NCBI GenBank assembly: GCA_963769425.1
Contig: CAVYLP010000003.1
Location: 319,911 to 383,910, forward strand
Source of the DNA: Candidatus Bathyarchaeota archaeon
GTDB taxonomy: Archaea > Thermoproteota > Bathyarchaeia > TCS64
Direction: 5' to 3'
Length of the DNA: 64,000 nt
In this document: positions 7,050-29,971 of the stretch, one piece after another
Position numbering within the stretch: the first letter of the stretch is position 1
How the letters are laid out: every line of letters begins with the position of its first letter
Program-made: the position numbers and the translations under genes
The notes under the pieces: model-generated
What the model was told of the DNA's origin: nothing
Database searches by the model: none
Seen by the model: only the letters and a program-made list of their open reading frames with translations

Positions 7050-7442
7050 ATGGGAATGGAGGAGAAGGAGAAGAAGATCGGCTTCATAATCGACGCGCTG
7101 GAGCAGCACATACCCCTGCTAATCCACAAGATAATCGACGAGTTCTACTCACCAGAGTCGGCGGGCAAGATCGGGAAGGGCCTGGCGGAGTTCTACAAGG
7201 CTCTCCGCGACGGAGGCGTTCCCGAAGGCGCAGCGGTGGAGATGGTGAAGGACTACGCCTCGAACCTGACCTTTAAGGGAATGGGGCACATGTATCGCCC
7301 AATGTCCCCAATGGGTGGGATGATGGGGGGTCACATGATGGGTGGTCCCATGGGTATGAATCCCATGATGATGAAGAAGTACATGAAGAAGATGTGGCAT
7401 GAGGGTAAAGAGGAAGAGCCAGAGGAAGAAGGAGAAGCATAA
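7050..7442 (+). CDS. hypothetical protein with Met/Gly-rich segment and acidic tail
   Basis: GGTGA RBS; MGHMYRPMSPMGGMMGGHMMGGPMGMNPMMM tract. Confidence 0.7.
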   Translation: MGMEEKEKKIGFIIDALEQHIPLLIHKIIDEFYSPESAGKIGKGLAEFYKALRDGGVPEGAAVEMVKDYASNLTFKGMGHMYRPMSPMGGMMGGHMMGGPMGMNPMMMKKYMKKMWHEGKEEEPEEEGEA

Positions 7443-7578
7443 TCCAAACCCTCAACGATCTATTTTTTAGAAACAATTCACTCGAAAAATTCTCCAAGGG
7501 AAAATCACGACTTTACGCCTCGCATGCTATTGTGGTCTGCCGGCGGGTGCTGGAGTACTGCAAGCCCACGACGCGCGC

Positions 7579-8840
7579 TGCCTTGTCCCTAAATTGATAT
7601 CCAAAACAAGACCCCAACCAAACACCCCACAGAACCCACTCATAAACCAAAAACCACTACAGAAAAACCTCCCCCAGCGAACAAAACACCAAACCACAGC
7701 CCAACAAACAAGAACACAAGCAGGAAACAACCTAGGAACCCCACTCACCACTAGACCACACTAGCCTCACACGTTGAAGAACGTCGGAGACACAGCCTTC
7801 TCCGGCCGACCCAGACACTCAGCGGCCTCCCTCACCAGCACGTGACAGAGAAGACTCAGCAACGCATACACCGACACATTTGATAAACGCCTCACGTTAT
7901 TCACCGTCAAGCCATACTGTGTCTTCAGGTAGCTGAACACCGACTCCACGAGAGGCCTCTTATGATACTCCCCAACCAACTCGGCGGGACCGTGAGTTCT
8001 GAACCTCCTATCCACCCTCAACACACCCTCACCCCTCTCCCTCGACATGTAGGGTATAGCCGAAGCCCCGACCATGGCTCTCAGCGCCTTACCACTATAC
8101 TGGCTGTCCGCCACCAGGCTCCGCAGCCGAGCCCCAACCCTACCCAGAACACTACGGGTCCTCTCCACAAGAGTCGGTGCGTGTTTCTTCTCGTTGTCGT
8201 TAGCCGGAGCCAGTAAGGTGGCGAGGGGCAGCATGGTTCTGTGGTCCACAGCTACGTGGAGCTTGTACCCTAGATCGTAGCCTCTTCCGTTCCTCCCCAC
8301 AAGCGCGTCCGGGTCTGAGTACGCGACTCGGCTGTCGTCGGGATGTCTTATGCTCCTAGCCTTGATGAAGCTCGCGTCCAGGAGCGCGTCTACCTCGGTG
8401 GCTCTGCTCCGCCTCAGCAACTTGATGACCTTCTCCTCGATGATCAGCTGAAGCGTCTCCGCTCCGACTCGTTTTGTGAAGCGGCTGATGACTGACCTGG
8501 GGTAGCCTCTCTCATTCTTCTTTATTAGGCAGAGTCTCCTGAGGCGCCGGTCGACGTCCAGGATCCGGGTGAGCTCCCGGAGGCTGCGGATGCCCTTCAA
8601 CCTCATGATGAGTAGGGCTCTGAAGATGCCGAGTGGGTTCCTCGGCTTCCTGCCGGGTCCGGTGGTGTGGTAGCAGCCGATGAGCTGCTGCTGGGCAATG
8701 CTTAAGTCGACGTTTCTGAAGAGTGTTTCAAGGGTCTCGTGTTCGTCCTGTCCTATGGATTGGAACTCCTCTGGTTCCCGCCATGGGTGACGAGACCCTT
8801 ACTGTCAAGATAAGTTTATCTCTAATTTAGGGACAGGGCA
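7579..8840 (-). mobile_element. IS4/IS5-type DDE insertion sequence with 17-bp TIRs, flanked by GCGCGC
   Basis: TIRs tgccttgtccctaaatt (7579-7595) and aatttagggacagggca (8824-8840), 16/17 complementary; GCGCGC at 7573-7578, and on the right after removing the IS110. Confidence 0.85.
7767..8606 (-). CDS. DDE transposase (DDE_Tnp_1-like); the frame stays open upstream to about 8795 (..GPGRKPRNPLGIFRALLI) without a standard start
   Basis: LLDASFI, GYKLHVAVD, VADSQY and Y-x2-R-x3-E-x6-K (YHKRPLVESVFSYLK) signature. Confidence 0.88.
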   Translation of the reverse strand: MRLKGIRSLRELTRILDVDRRLRRLCLIKKNERGYPRSVISRFTKRVGAETLQLIIEEKVIKLLRRSRATEVDALLDASFIKARSIRHPDDSRVAYSDPDALVGRNGRGYDLGYKLHVAVDHRTMLPLATLLAPANDNEKKHAPTLVERTRSVLGRVGARLRSLVADSQYSGKALRAMVGASAIPYMSRERGEGVLRVDRRFRTHGPAELVGEYHKRPLVESVFSYLKTQYGLTVNNVRRLSNVSVYALLSLLCHVLVREAAECLGRPEKAVSPTFFNV

Positions 8841-8884
8841 GACGGTATGAGAAACGTTTTCAGGAATAGACCGTGAGGGTGTCG

Positions 8885-9013
8885 CGGGTGGCCTAGGCCC
8901 GCCGCGCGCTTGGTCCCGATGAGACCCCTAGGGCAGACTGGGCCAGACCCGAGCGGCTACCCGACTGGTCCGAGGAGAGACCCGATAGGAGCGTGCCGCC
9001 CGCAGGCCACCCG
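8885..9013 (+). ncRNA. putative IS110 bridge RNA with target-binding and donor-binding loops
   Basis: outer stem 8885-8894/9004-9013; loop 1 closed by ggccc/gggcc with guides cgcgcgct (8903-8910) and agggcag (8930-8936); loop 2 closed by gcggc/gccgc with ccgact (8961-8966) and ataggag (8985-8991). Confidence 0.78.
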
Positions 9014-9015
9014 AG

Positions 9016-10101
9016 GTGACACCCGTGAAATACGTTGGAATAGACGTCCATAAAAAGATGTGTCAGGCAGCCGTCCTCGACGAGGACGGGACCCTACTCG
9101 ATGAACAGCGATTCCCCAACGACCCCGAGGGAATCGAGGAGTTCGCCGGAAAGCTAACCACCTTCCGCGTCGAGATCAGAGCGGTGGTTGAGTCAACTGG
9201 GAACCTCTGGATCCAGATCCATGACAGGCTCGAGACACACGGATTCGACGTGGCCCTATCAAACCCATCAAAGACAAGGCTCATCGCCGAGGCGAAGGTG
9301 AAGACCGACAAGGTCGACGCCAGGACCCTCGCGGGGCTGCTCAGAGCAGACATGCTGCCGACCTGCTACGTGCCCGGGGAGGAGCTCCGGAGCCGACGTG
9401 AGCTCCTGAGGCACCGGCTGAATCTGGTTAAGGTCCGCACCGCTGTCAGGAACAGGATCCATGGGCTGCTCGACAAGCATGGCCTCAGGATGCCGGAGGT
9501 GACCCACTTCAGCAAGGGCAACGTGGAGTGGCTGAAGGGGCTCAGCCTCGGCTTCATGGATGACGCCATACTGCGCAGCGACCTCGCGCTCCTCGAGACG
9601 GTGGACACTCAGGTCAATGTGATCGAGGAGAAGATCGCTGTTCTGGCTGCTGAGGATCCTAGGGTGCGGCTGCTGATGACGATGACTGGCGTCGGCTACT
9701 TCACCGCGATGATGGTGGTCTCGGAGGTCGGGGACATCGGTCGCTTCCGCGGTGAGAAGGAGTTCGCGTCGTGGATGGGGTTGGCTCCGTCGGTGCGTCA
9801 GTCGGGGGAGAAGACGAGGATGGGTGGTGTCTCTGGTCCCGGTAACAAGAGGCTGCAGTGGGCGTTGGTGGAGTCGGCTCAGACCGCGGTCAGGCACGAT
9901 GCTCGGCTCGGTGGATTGTATGAGAGGCTGTCTAGGAGGAAGGGATCGGGGTGCGCTGTAGTGGCTGTTGCGCATGAGATGGCTCGGATTATGTATTTCA
10001 TGTTGGTGAGGGGTGAGGCTTATCGGGGTGAGGATAGGGGGTTGACGGAGAGAAAGCTTAAGAACCTGGGTAAGAGAGCGTTTGATGGCCTGCGGAACTG
10101 A
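9016..10101 (+). CDS. IS110 family DEDD transposase/recombinase (start possibly GTG 9025)
   Basis: GIDVHK, VVESTG, KTDKVDA (DEDD) and GLAPSVRQSG catalytic Ser motif. Confidence 0.95.
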   Translation: MTPVKYVGIDVHKKMCQAAVLDEDGTLLDEQRFPNDPEGIEEFAGKLTTFRVEIRAVVESTGNLWIQIHDRLETHGFDVALSNPSKTRLIAEAKVKTDKVDARTLAGLLRADMLPTCYVPGEELRSRRELLRHRLNLVKVRTAVRNRIHGLLDKHGLRMPEVTHFSKGNVEWLKGLSLGFMDDAILRSDLALLETVDTQVNVIEEKIAVLAAEDPRVRLLMTMTGVGYFTAMMVVSEVGDIGRFRGEKEFASWMGLAPSVRQSGEKTRMGGVSGPGNKRLQWALVESAQTAVRHDARLGGLYERLSRRKGSGCAVVAVAHEMARIMYFMLVRGEAYRGEDRGLTERKLKNLGKRAFDGLRN

Positions 10102-10340
10102 GTGGGTGCTGCCCGGGCACCGTGTGCTCTGAAAACGTTCTCATAGGAGCGCGCGAAGAACACGGGCATTATGAGAATAATCCGGAGCATGAGGTTGAGA
10201 CGAGGCAACTGATGAATAAACTGATTGCTATGCCGGCTTCGGATTTATTCGAAATCACAACCAAGTGACTTATTGGCAATTCTAAGTCAAATAAGTAATT
10301 CGAATTCGAACGTTTTAATGAGATCGATGCACGTGAGCAC

Positions 10341-11024
10341 TCAAGTTGAAGCGCGCTCAACTCTAAGGATGGATGCGAGGAGGTTCTGACATCGTTCTGT
10401 GTTGAAGAAGTTGCATGTGCATTGGTGTGCAAGTTCAATTGAGGCCTCCAGTATGGTGAGGTGTCCCGTTCTCACCTCGCGTGTCATGTGGGCGACCAGG
10501 TATGGGGAGACCATGTGGTGGCCGCACATGGAGGTTATCTCGAGGATGCTTGTGTCCGGGAGTAGCTCTAGTCGTCCGTGGGTCCCAGCCGACATGTTGA
10601 CGGTGTGTGGTTCGATCCCGGCTGCCTCGCAGGCTGACCTGACACTTCCGAATAATCCGCTGACGACGACGCTTATCCCAAGCTCAGCCTCCTTAAGCTC
10701 TGCGACGACGGCGTCCACATCCTTCTCGTCGGAGTAGACTGCGCTTCCCCATTTGATGTCTCTGAGGTCTCCGATCTCCACGAGTGTGCTGTACGGTAGC
10801 TTGCCCGAGTTGCGGGTTTCCTCCCAGCCTCTGACGTATCTGTATCGTGTCGTCTTGTCTGCCTCCATTCTTCTGCAGGATAGGCAGACTGGGTTGTGTG
10901 CGGCTAGTATCTTCATGTAGCGCTCGTGTTTTCTCGGGTCGATGAGGCGGGTGTCAGTGTTGAATACAATCCAGTCGTGCAGGAGGGACTCCGCTGTGCC
11001 CAGTCGGTGGTTGCTGTGGGTCAT
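10341..11024 (-). CDS. conserved hypothetical Cys/His protein (MTHSNHRLG...) coupled to the ferredoxin-domain gene
   Basis: ATGA overlap at 11021-11024; GISVVVSG, SMCGHHMV, CTCNFFN motifs. Confidence 0.7.
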   Translation of the reverse strand: MTHSNHRLGTAESLLHDWIVFNTDTRLIDPRKHERYMKILAAHNPVCLSCRRMEADKTTRYRYVRGWEETRNSGKLPYSTLVEIGDLRDIKWGSAVYSDEKDVDAVVAELKEAELGISVVVSGLFGSVRSACEAAGIEPHTVNMSAGTHGRLELLPDTSILEITSMCGHHMVSPYLVAHMTREVRTGHLTILEASIELAHQCTCNFFNTERCQNLLASILRVERAST

Positions 11025-29407: not shown

Positions 29408-29910
29408 CGCCTCGTCTCTTTATTGATTAATACCGGTTCTAAACGGTCATAACCCTCATCTTCATGGCTGAGAGGACTCCCTGAACGTCCTCCCTGAGGC
29501 TCACTTCCCCCCGCTTGCCACGATGTTTCCCCATAAGTGGTAACCACTAATAAGGTGTTTCCACGTGGACACCCTTCACACCGATGAATGAACACATCCA
29601 AACCGGGTTACGCCTCCGATTGAACGGCGTCCACTCAACCCGCCTCTATTCACATCGTTCAATGAACCGCGATCCACGCCCTTCAATGGGTGTTGAAGGC
29701 ACACGGAATGCAACGGTTTTCAATAGATATTCAACGGTTTTCAACGCGTTTCAGATGGTTCCGGCGACGCGTCCCCGACGACTCCGCTATATATAGCTGA
29801 ATATATGGAACAGGATCTCGATGAAAGAAGGGTCCATTTTAGTGTCTTATTTAGCGTAATTGTGTTTAGGATAATTTTAGACCGTCTATTATCAATCTAG
29901 GGACAAGGCA
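29408..29910. mobile_element. MITE-like non-autonomous relative of the 7579-8840 IS
   Basis: 29891-29916 matches the reverse complement of the IS left end plus flank at 25/26; degenerate left TIR 29408-29427; GCGCGC on both sides; no transposase. Confidence 0.65.
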
Positions 29911-29971
29911 GCGCGCACTCGAAGGACTCTATTTATTTGCACGGGTTTCACCATGTTACCTCATAGCATCC

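Follow-up and report, generated by a model that had tools for sequence, protein, structure and literature searches.

An IS1111-like element of Bathyarchaeia with a predicted guide RNA matching the terminus of another insertion sequence

Background

Bridge and seek RNAs, their natural reprogramming and the targeting of another transposon's inverted repeats are already in print. In this report we describe an insertion sequence (IS) located in 64,000 nucleotides of DNA from Candidatus Bathyarchaeota archaeon (GenBank assembly GCA_963769425.1, contig CAVYLP010000003.1, positions 319,911 to 383,910 of the forward strand); this whole stretch is called the window. The element, at 8842-10149, belongs to the IS110 family and is of IS1111 type, and the loops of its RNA very probably guide the recombinase to the junction between the terminal inverted repeat (TIR) of a DDE-type IS and CGCG.

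According to Siddiquee et al. 2024 (PMC11187229), seekRNAs of the IS1111 family carry the complement of the top strand first, an order that is reversed in the IS110 type. Elements of the IS1111 family have subterminal repeats of 11-13 bp with reported terminal extensions of 7+3 or 6+3, and their non-coding region usually lies downstream of the gene; among the exceptions are ISMtsp17, named as the single close IS1111 relative that has it upstream, and the archaeal ISHvo10 (both sides). For IS621, Durrant et al. 2024 (PMC11208160) give subterminal repeats of 2-3 bp, an RNA in the left end and repetitive extragenic palindromic (REP) elements as targets. Archaeal IS110-family recombinases numbered 662 in Vaysset et al.

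With the IS1111 elements ISEc11, ISPa11 and ISKpn4 the window element shares a DEDD transposase, subterminal repeats with short extensions and natural reprogramming. It departs from the usual IS1111 arrangement in having its long non-coding region and its RNA upstream of the gene, and in having an archaeal host. ISMtsp17 is likewise an IS1111-type element with a long upstream non-coding region, and in the archaeal ISHvo9 a non-coding stretch also precedes the gene; the GGTCC...GAGACCC scaffold described below was not seen by eye in the 250 nt upstream of ISHvo9 (pHV4). We call the element IS1111-like for its guide order and ends, with the RNA upstream, a putative assignment made by those features. 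A description of the element as inverted relative to IS621 was dropped, the IS1111-type guide order having been found in print. For the Bathyarchaeia lineage, its scaffold and its IS-terminus targets no description was found among the titles and abstracts that literature searches listed; the supplements of Durrant et al. (predicted bridge RNAs for ISfinder elements) and Siddiquee et al. (Supplementary Fig. 2) may already include archaeal relatives.

The element, its ends and its recombinase

The element stands exactly between the last base of the right TIR of a DDE IS and a CGCG flank. The features needed to follow this are:

8842-10149, plus strand: IS110-family (IS1111-like) element, 1308 bp, AG core at 8840-8841 and 10148-10149
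8846-8863, plus strand: left subterminal inverted repeat, TATGAGAAACGTTTTCAG, 4 nt inside the element end
10129-10145, plus strand: right subterminal inverted repeat, then GG and the AG core
9016-10101, plus strand: DEDD recombinase gene, 361 aa from the GTG at 9016
7578-8841, minus strand: IS5/IS1182-like DDE insertion sequence, 1264 bp, transposase frame 7767-8798
7578-7595, plus strand: left TIR of the DDE IS, starting CTGCCTTGTCCC, with CGCGCG before it at 7572-7577 and free of an IS110-type element
8824-8841, plus strand: right TIR of the DDE IS, with the end ...GGGACAGGGCAG; the left target half plus core is formed by its final 7 nt (8835-8841, AGGGCAG)
10150-10155, plus strand: right target half, CGCGCG, complementary to the 5' guide of loop 1

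The left junction (8841/8842) reads ...GGGACAGGGC-AG / ACGGTATG and the right one (10149/10150) ...CATAGG-AG / CGCGCG. Terminal inverted repeats are absent, and the AG core is present at both junctions with different adjoining bases, which is a hallmark of the IS110 family. The 18-nt TIRs of the DDE IS are 94% complementary, and the CGCGCG at 10150-10155 mirrors the one at 7572-7577 to the left of that IS. An earlier sequence-only reading of this DNA had placed an element at 8842-10149 between the end of the right TIR and CGCGCG, mirrored at the left end, and all of these coordinates were confirmed; that the interrupted site is the terminus of another IS is borne out by the TIRs and by further termini of the same kind in the genome.

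The subterminal repeat is exact over 11 nt (8853-8863 with 10129-10139), within the 11-13 bp given for the IS1111 family, and by eye extends to 18 versus 17 nt with one 1-nt indel. Beyond the repeats lie 4 nt (ACGG) at one end and 2 nt (GG) at the other, plus the 2-bp core, which makes 6+2 or 4+4 depending on core assignment and compares with the 7+3 or 6+3 given there for IS1111. The non-coding ends measure 174 nt upstream and 48 nt downstream of the gene, a long left and a short right end as described for IS621, from which the element differs in its long subterminal repeats (11-18 nt versus 2-3 bp) and in its target, IS and other element termini instead of REP elements.

The recombinase has an alternative start, GTG 9025, after a Shine-Dalgarno-like GGTGA at 9014-9018. 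It matches the Pfam domains PF01548 (DEDD_Tnp_IS110, E 1.1e-29) and PF02371 (Transposase_20, E 2.2e-24), passes the NCBIfam model NF033542 'IS110 family RNA-guided transposase' with 270 bits against a cut-off of 140, and resembles in the PDB the transposases of ISCro4 (E 5.8e-18) and IS621 (E 4e-15). Alignment to ISCro4 places the catalytic motifs GIDV (D10), vvEst (E59), KTDkvDA (D98, D101) and GLxP....SG (S263), the roles of these D, E, D, D and Ser residues being taken from the literature. The closest annotated proteins (tblastn, plasmid collection) are haloarchaeal IS110-family transposases such as ISHvo9, with 39-44% identity. Domains, motifs, core and RNA thus place the element in the IS110 family, as judged from sequence. 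The earlier assignment to an archaeal IS110 agrees with these domain matches, and all 18 of the 18 recombinase relatives found among genome contigs came from metagenome-assembled genomes of Bathyarchaeia/Bathyarchaeota.

A predicted two-loop RNA with guides for target and donor

The non-coding end upstream of the gene contains the following predicted features:

8885-9013, plus strand: predicted bridge/seek RNA core, outer stem 8885-8894/9004-9013 around both loops
8896-8944, plus strand: target-binding loop (loop 1), basal stem 8896-8900/8940-8944, distal hairpin 8912-8915/8923-8926
8903-8910 and 8930-8936, plus strand: 5' guide (CGCGCGCT) and 3' guide (AGGGCAG) of loop 1
8950-9002, plus strand: donor-binding loop (loop 2), basal stem 8950-8951 and 8953-8957 with 8995-8999 and 9001-9002, hairpin 8967-8970/8979-8982
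8958-8966 and 8985-8991, plus strand: 5' guide (TACCCGACT) and 3' guide (ATAGGAG) of loop 2

The outer stem is a perfect 10-bp complement, and each loop is closed by a small GGTC/GACC hairpin. The guide words recur at the DNA sites: CGCGCGCT on the minus strand at 10148-10155, AGGGCAG at 8835-8841 and ATAGGAG at 10143-10149. Read as its reverse complement, AG+CGCGCG gives the 5' guide of loop 1, and AGGGC+AG is identical to the 3' guide of that loop, as the sequence-only reading had claimed for both halves of the target. The donor 5' guide TACCCGACT pairs discontinuously with the left end (TACC with GGTA, G..CT with AG.C). In dinucleotide-preserving shuffles the expected numbers per 64 kb on both strands were 1.43 for CGCGCGCT, 9.2 for AGGGCAG and 10.4 for ATAGGAG; all three exact words would occur by chance on one strand of 174 nt with a probability of approximately 0.002 x 0.012 x 0.014, or about 1e-7 (our own arithmetic, the symmetric placement in the loops being extra).

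The arrangement resembles that of IS621 and ISCro4 (PMC11208160; PDB entries 8wt6 and 9t56): a bispecific RNA upstream of the gene, the first of its two loops serving the target and the second the donor, guides of 7-9 nt each including a 2-bp core that reads CT on one strand, one discontinuous donor guide (9 RNA letters against fewer DNA bases), and a homologous DEDD and Ser protein. In the window the guide order is reversed relative to IS621, and the core is AG in gene orientation with CT on the opposite strand.

Comparative evidence for the fold was drawn from 18 loci from genomes and 80 from metagenomes (the best 80 of 206). An alignment of the window with 71 of these loci, 72 sequences in all, covered the 140 nt that precede the gene; the other 27 were duplicates, truncated or loop-deleted. 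Mean column identity was 74%, and the variable columns are almost exactly the guides of loop 1 and the hairpin tips. RNAalifold recovered all six helices, that is the outer stem and the basal stems and hairpins of both loops, with compensatory changes at 5 of 29 pairs, among them CG<->UA exchanges at three outer-stem pairs (for example columns 13/158 with CG 40 and UA 15, and 22/150 with CG 43 and UA 14). Paired cells amounted to 97.4%, compared with 29.8-47.5% when the partners were slid by 1-3 columns. None of 500 shuffles reached the observed covariation score or the number of doubly changed cells, and 18 of 500 reached the number of changed pairs. Folding and covariation analysis of this end had been named as a check by the sequence-only reading, whose outer stem with two hairpin-bearing loops is the architecture recovered here. 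We regard the structural covariation as good but not overwhelming support, and the fold is accepted because of these comparative data and not because of single-sequence folding energy. Structures of minimum free energy (MFE) computed from the single sequence were set aside, the guides being paired in them, and the fold was taken from the alignment.

Two relatives carry altered RNAs. In one (L006) the 5' half of loop 1 is joined via one hairpin to the 3' half of loop 2, a fusion that apparently arose by recombination between the two GGTCC...GAGACCC hairpins, and in another (L036) the hairpin of loop 2 is truncated.

Guides change with flanks and element ends

All guide-flank comparisons were read by hand, and for the 3' guide of loop 1, defined as the letters directly before A(C/T/A)TGGG, 68 non-redundant loci were used. 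Next to the AG core this guide matched the left flank contiguously over at least 5 letters in 32 of the 68 loci, over 4 in 10 and over 3 in 14; weaker loci had 2 matches (3/68), 1 (4/68) or 0 (5/68). The 32 full matches span 17 different 5-mers (AGGGC, AAGGC, AAGCC, GAGCC, AGCCT, GACCT, ACCCT, CATGT, TAAAC, ACTTC, AGTAC, GCTTA, CTTTA, GCGTA, TCGTA, CTTAA and ATTTA). Matches almost never exceed 5 letters, which indicates a 3' guide of 5+2 nt.

The 5' guide of loop 1 is CGCGCG-CT in most loci, and the right flank there begins with CGCG(CG). Ten lineages have another 5' guide, and in each of them the right flank matches the lineage's own guide, as follows (matching letters plus core):

L073: 7+2
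L078, L088 and L091-L093: 8+2
L090: 8+2 or more
L094 and L071: 6+2
L010: 5+2
L053, L059 and L061: 5-7+2
L099 and L100: 6-7, core mismatch
L008: 7 of 8

The donor guides vary together with the element ends in a similar manner. In most loci ATAGGAG goes along with the right end CATAGGAG, L003 deviating by one letter; ATAGAAG accompanies the right end CATAGAAG in L038, L088, L093 and L094, and ATGGAAG accompanies CATGGAAG in L091, L092 and L095. In L099 a C-to-A change of the donor 5' guide (TACAT) is found alongside a G-to-T change of the left end (ATATGTA). The order of the guides, with the complement of the top strand first, was the same in all relatives read; it is that of IS1111-family seekRNAs, and in this point the element departs from the IS621 type to which the sequence-only reading had referred. 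Taken together the loci suggest a 3' guide of 5+2 nt, a 5' guide of 6-8+2 nt and an optional 1-nt spacer before the hairpin.

The insertion point, the conservation of the fold, the covariation of guides with flanks and with ends, and the catalytic motifs can all be read off the aligned sequences. On this comparative ground, a conserved scaffold whose loop-1 guides change with the flanks is, in our view, decisive support for an RNA-guided choice of site. It also bears on the idea that the conserved upstream RNA is no DNA guide and mainly regulates the recombinase mRNA in cis, or works as antisense RNA to the DDE IS. With its 3' strand the outer stem reaches up to 2-11 nt ahead of the possible starts and overlaps the Shine-Dalgarno-like GGTGA, and its folding could affect translation; however, a regulator's loop letters need not track the DNA at both sides of the insertion and at both element ends, and homologous proteins use such RNAs as DNA guides. 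We hold this idea to be very improbable.

Targets, copies and distribution

The termini to which the guides correspond were counted in the element's own genome (2.55 Mb in 6 contigs). Exact termini of the type CTG(C/G)C(C/T)TGTCCC number 11. Two of these read CTGCCCT, the perfect complement of the guide, and both are occupied (the window copy and C4:252637); nine read CTGCCTT, all of them empty and 7 of the 9 adjoined by CGCG. No uninterrupted perfect 13-bp site is left in this genome, and six sites with one mismatch are present, three of them at such termini. A second copy of the element (C4:252649-253671) is 98.9% identical, 3'-truncated and frameshifted, and adjoins the same type of TIR end; this, together with the relatives' guides changing with their flanks, is the outcome of the flank alignment that had been proposed as a check. 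Apart from the window copy, the DDE IS has one full copy in the genome (C3:52075-53338, protein 85% identical) and several fragments.

In the relatives, 45 of the 68 loci adjoin a terminus of the form AATTT....ACA..C.AG (28 of the GGGACA type and 16 of the CTAAACA type). One of them (L071) is inserted 5 bp further inside a terminus of the CTAAACA type, with both guides shifted to suit. Elements of a more distant clade lie on a different repeat (...CATCACCGCTTAA...), in one orientation in L078 and L099 and in the opposite one in L091-L093. The repeat (G)GGGCGCATCACCGCTTAA... is seen beside elements of this clade, in the left flanks of L078 and L099 and in the right flanks of L091-L093, L096 and L084, and probably represents the end of a further mobile element. 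Some termini are those of elements that lack a DDE gene, measure about 470-620 bp and look like miniature inverted-repeat transposable elements (MITEs) (window 29409-29911, L003 1859-2327 and three pairs in the own genome); L003 has such a 470-bp element with both ends, and in L011 the partner end of the terminus was looked for and not found. The open reading frames (ORFs) upstream in L003, L009, L011 and L094 are host genes and not DDE transposases, from which it follows that many targets are solo termini or resemble MITEs and are not full IS. Judged by these flanks, the whole lineage has the habit of targeting the ends of other mobile elements.

Some of these places deserve a separate description. 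The stretch at 29409-29911 of the window (about 500 bp) has CTGCCTTGTCCC at 29900-29911 on the minus strand, a degenerate left end, CGCG on both sides and no evident DDE gene; its terminus is free of an IS110-type element and has a one-letter mismatch to the guide. In L063 the element lies between two termini arranged tail to head, ...ACAAGCC-AG / element / CGCGCG, with the CTGGCTTGTCCC of the next IS or MITE coming immediately after the CGCGCG. In L020 an IS110-type gene fragment is followed, a few hundred bases downstream of its start, by a complete DDE IS of the same family with CGCG on both sides, and the two kinds of element may insert into each other. In the own genome, C2:119938-122340 holds a left-end fragment of the DDE IS (77% identity) about 1.8 kb from a fragment of a distant IS110-family gene (47% identity over residues 52-152), and may be an IS graveyard.

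The two copies also bear on whether the element and the DDE IS travel or are copied as one composite block, through homologous recombination or the action of the DDE transposase, with no role for an RNA-guided choice of the site and with the loop matches being incidental. The second genome copy has the same junction, and the last ~220 bp of its DDE IS are, by eye, far closer to those of the window than the rest is. On the other hand, relatives adjoin a variety of IS and MITE copies whose sequences are unrelated further out, unoccupied DDE IS and MITE copies exist, relatives at quite different sites carry correspondingly different guides, and the chance value for the three exact guide words stands against incidental matches. 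Over 656 nt the two occupied DDE IS copies are 84.6% identical, versus 98.9% for the element copies, and diverged DDE IS with near-identical elements speak for two insertions. We give the composite block very little credence as an explanation of the locus.

Within the class, the 140-nt scaffold was detected in 16 of 301 sampled genomes (own genome included) with 1-3 matches each; 13 of 70 genomes of the same family carry it, and so do 2 genomes of other families; many of the remaining class genomes are incomplete, and non-detection in them does not mean absence. This low copy number is one reason to ask whether we are looking at a genuine bridge-RNA element that is now a fossil, its guides recording a past insertion of a copy that no longer moves. 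The single intact copy beside one frameshifted and truncated copy in 2.55 Mb, and the loop-deleted variants L006 and L036 among the relatives, point the same way, as does the lack of excision or circle joints in the fragmentary contigs of four DNA runs. However, the window copy keeps an open frame of 361 codons with its catalytic motifs, its stems are intact, its guides match target and donor, and the 98.9% identity of the two copies indicates recent spread. We consider a fossil rather unlikely.

Proposed mechanism and its weighing

By homology with IS621, ISCro4 and ISEc11, the element may be expected to be transcribed, its RNA to bind the protein, and recombination to proceed through a circular intermediate with exchange of strands. 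The upstream non-coding end would be transcribed into an RNA of ~130 nt (8885-9013) with an outer stem and two internal loops. The target loop would read both strands of the 13-bp site, its 5' guide CGCGCG-CT pairing with the top strand (gene orientation) of AG+CGCGCG, and the donor loop would read the circle junction formed by the joined ends, the 3' guide ATAGG-AG matching the right end and the 5' guide TACCCGA-CT pairing discontinuously with the left one. The DEDD recombinase, held by this RNA, would exchange strands at the shared 2-bp core (AG, or CT on the other strand), which would put the element exactly between the last TIR base of the IS5/IS1182-like IS and CGCG.

A number of observations weigh against this mechanism, which we nevertheless consider very probable. 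The donor 5' guide matches the complement of AG+ACGG in only 5 of 6 contiguous letters (CCGACT, 8961-8966), as the sequence-only reading had reported together with the exact ATAGGAG match to the circle junction. Most stem pairs are invariant, so that structural covariation comes down to 5 pairs; single-sequence MFE folding was no better than shuffles (z -0.01 for 8842-9020 and -0.95 for 8880-9018), and Rfam 15 gave zero matches over 7400-10400 at E <= 1. The 3' guide of loop 1 has no match beyond the core in L025, L040, L047, L052 and L070, and 7 further loci match over 1-2 nt; the 5' guide fails in L055, L067 and L080. We read such disagreements of guide and flank as the result of insertion off target, of exchange between copies at a later time, or of decay. 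By eye, the two occupied DDE IS copies agree to about 97% in their last ~220 bp, and the second copy could possibly have arisen by duplication of a block of IS end plus element. With one intact and one broken copy in the genome, the element may have lost its activity by now. No RNA run was listed as containing 8700-10300. Over 8600-10400 the contigs of the four DNA runs gave neither a circle joint nor an excision joint; they consisted of fragmentary pieces of relatives and are no evidence either way on circles or empty sites.

For the 13-bp site to exist, a TIR terminus of this kind must adjoin CGCG. CGCG lies outside the TIR at both ends of the window DDE copy, the second full copy, the L020 copy and the MITE-like element of the window, and letters 5 and 6 vary. 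Palindromic 4-bp targets are usual in the IS5 group. The CGCG may be a 4-bp target-site duplication made by the DDE IS, or equally the last 4 bp of the IS itself, or a pre-existing preference for CGCG. A search for an empty site, with the right flank 10150-10900 against the genomes of 40 relatives, returned a single 116-nt match (G012) and no such site. The sequence-only reading had spoken of a junction of TIR and target site that exists only after insertion of the host IS. A weaker form of this stands, the site needing a terminus next to CGCG; as to a target-site duplication, with flanks that are non-adjacent parts of an FmdE-like gene and no empty site found, the wording is plausible but unproven.

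IS and MITE termini may serve as multi-copy, neutral and horizontally travelling landing sites, as the Tn21 repeats do for IS4321 and IS5075. The latter two, members of the IS1111 family, were reportedly shown by Partridge and Hall in 2003 to take the Tn21 family's terminal inverted repeats as targets. Like them, the window element has as its target a terminal inverted repeat that belongs to a different mobile element of DDE type; unlike these bacterial elements and their 38-bp Tn21-family repeat, it cuts at the outermost base of the TIR of an archaeal IS5/IS1182-like IS, and its site extends into CGCG. The targeting of other transposons' inverted repeats would thereby be extended from bacterial Tn21-type elements to archaeal IS and MITEs.

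A further, tentative idea, which we regard as possible and still doubtful, is that Bathyarchaeia harbour an RNA-guided recombinase lineage specialised as a transposon parasite, with a target loop rewritten again and again for sequence variants, adjacent positions and even the reverse orientation on the termini of IS5-like IS and their MITEs, and with sites created by the CGCG-specific insertion of the host IS. Cases of target-loop rewriting are the variants ...AGCC-AG, ...AGGC-AG and ...GCCT-AG, the insertion 5 bp inside the terminus in L071, and L078 versus L091 on one repeat in both orientations. If true, the DDE IS would, as it spreads, supply its parasite with fresh landing sites, and occupation of a terminus may affect the mobility of that IS. 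The mechanism as such is already known, and the gain is one of breadth and not of principle. About 70 close relatives, with one scaffold of ~130 nt and many target guides lying beside their own sites, amount to a natural reprogramming experiment, and the series would be useful for learning by which rules an archaeal bridge/seek-RNA recombinase uses its guides and how far it tolerates mismatches. For classification, the element mixes IS1111-type guide order and long subterminal repeats with an upstream RNA.

The interrupted IS and its surroundings

The transposase of the DDE IS matches Pfam DDE_Tnp_1 (E 9e-19) and, weakly, DUF772; it resembles the NCBIfam IS1182/IS5 models, with every score below the cut-off. 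Its frame (7767-8798, minus strand) is open for 343 codons, but no ATG, GTG or TTG stands in frame ahead of codon 65. The homologous gene of L020 starts at an ATG that corresponds to ~8785, and in the window this ATG appears out of frame by hand count.

Both IS lie within the remains of an FmdE-like gene (7500-7577 and 10154-10269) of which about 70 codons are missing. A 157-codon ORF in a genome of the same genus (L102 1142-1615) has, at its 3' end, 79% identity to the right flank, 10154-10269; the left flank resembles the N-terminal part of that ORF, and only weakly. The two window flanks are non-contiguous. Further to the left, at 7050-7442, there is an ORF of 130 codons with a Met/Gly/Pro-rich stretch (many M and G at residues 80-115) and an acidic tail.

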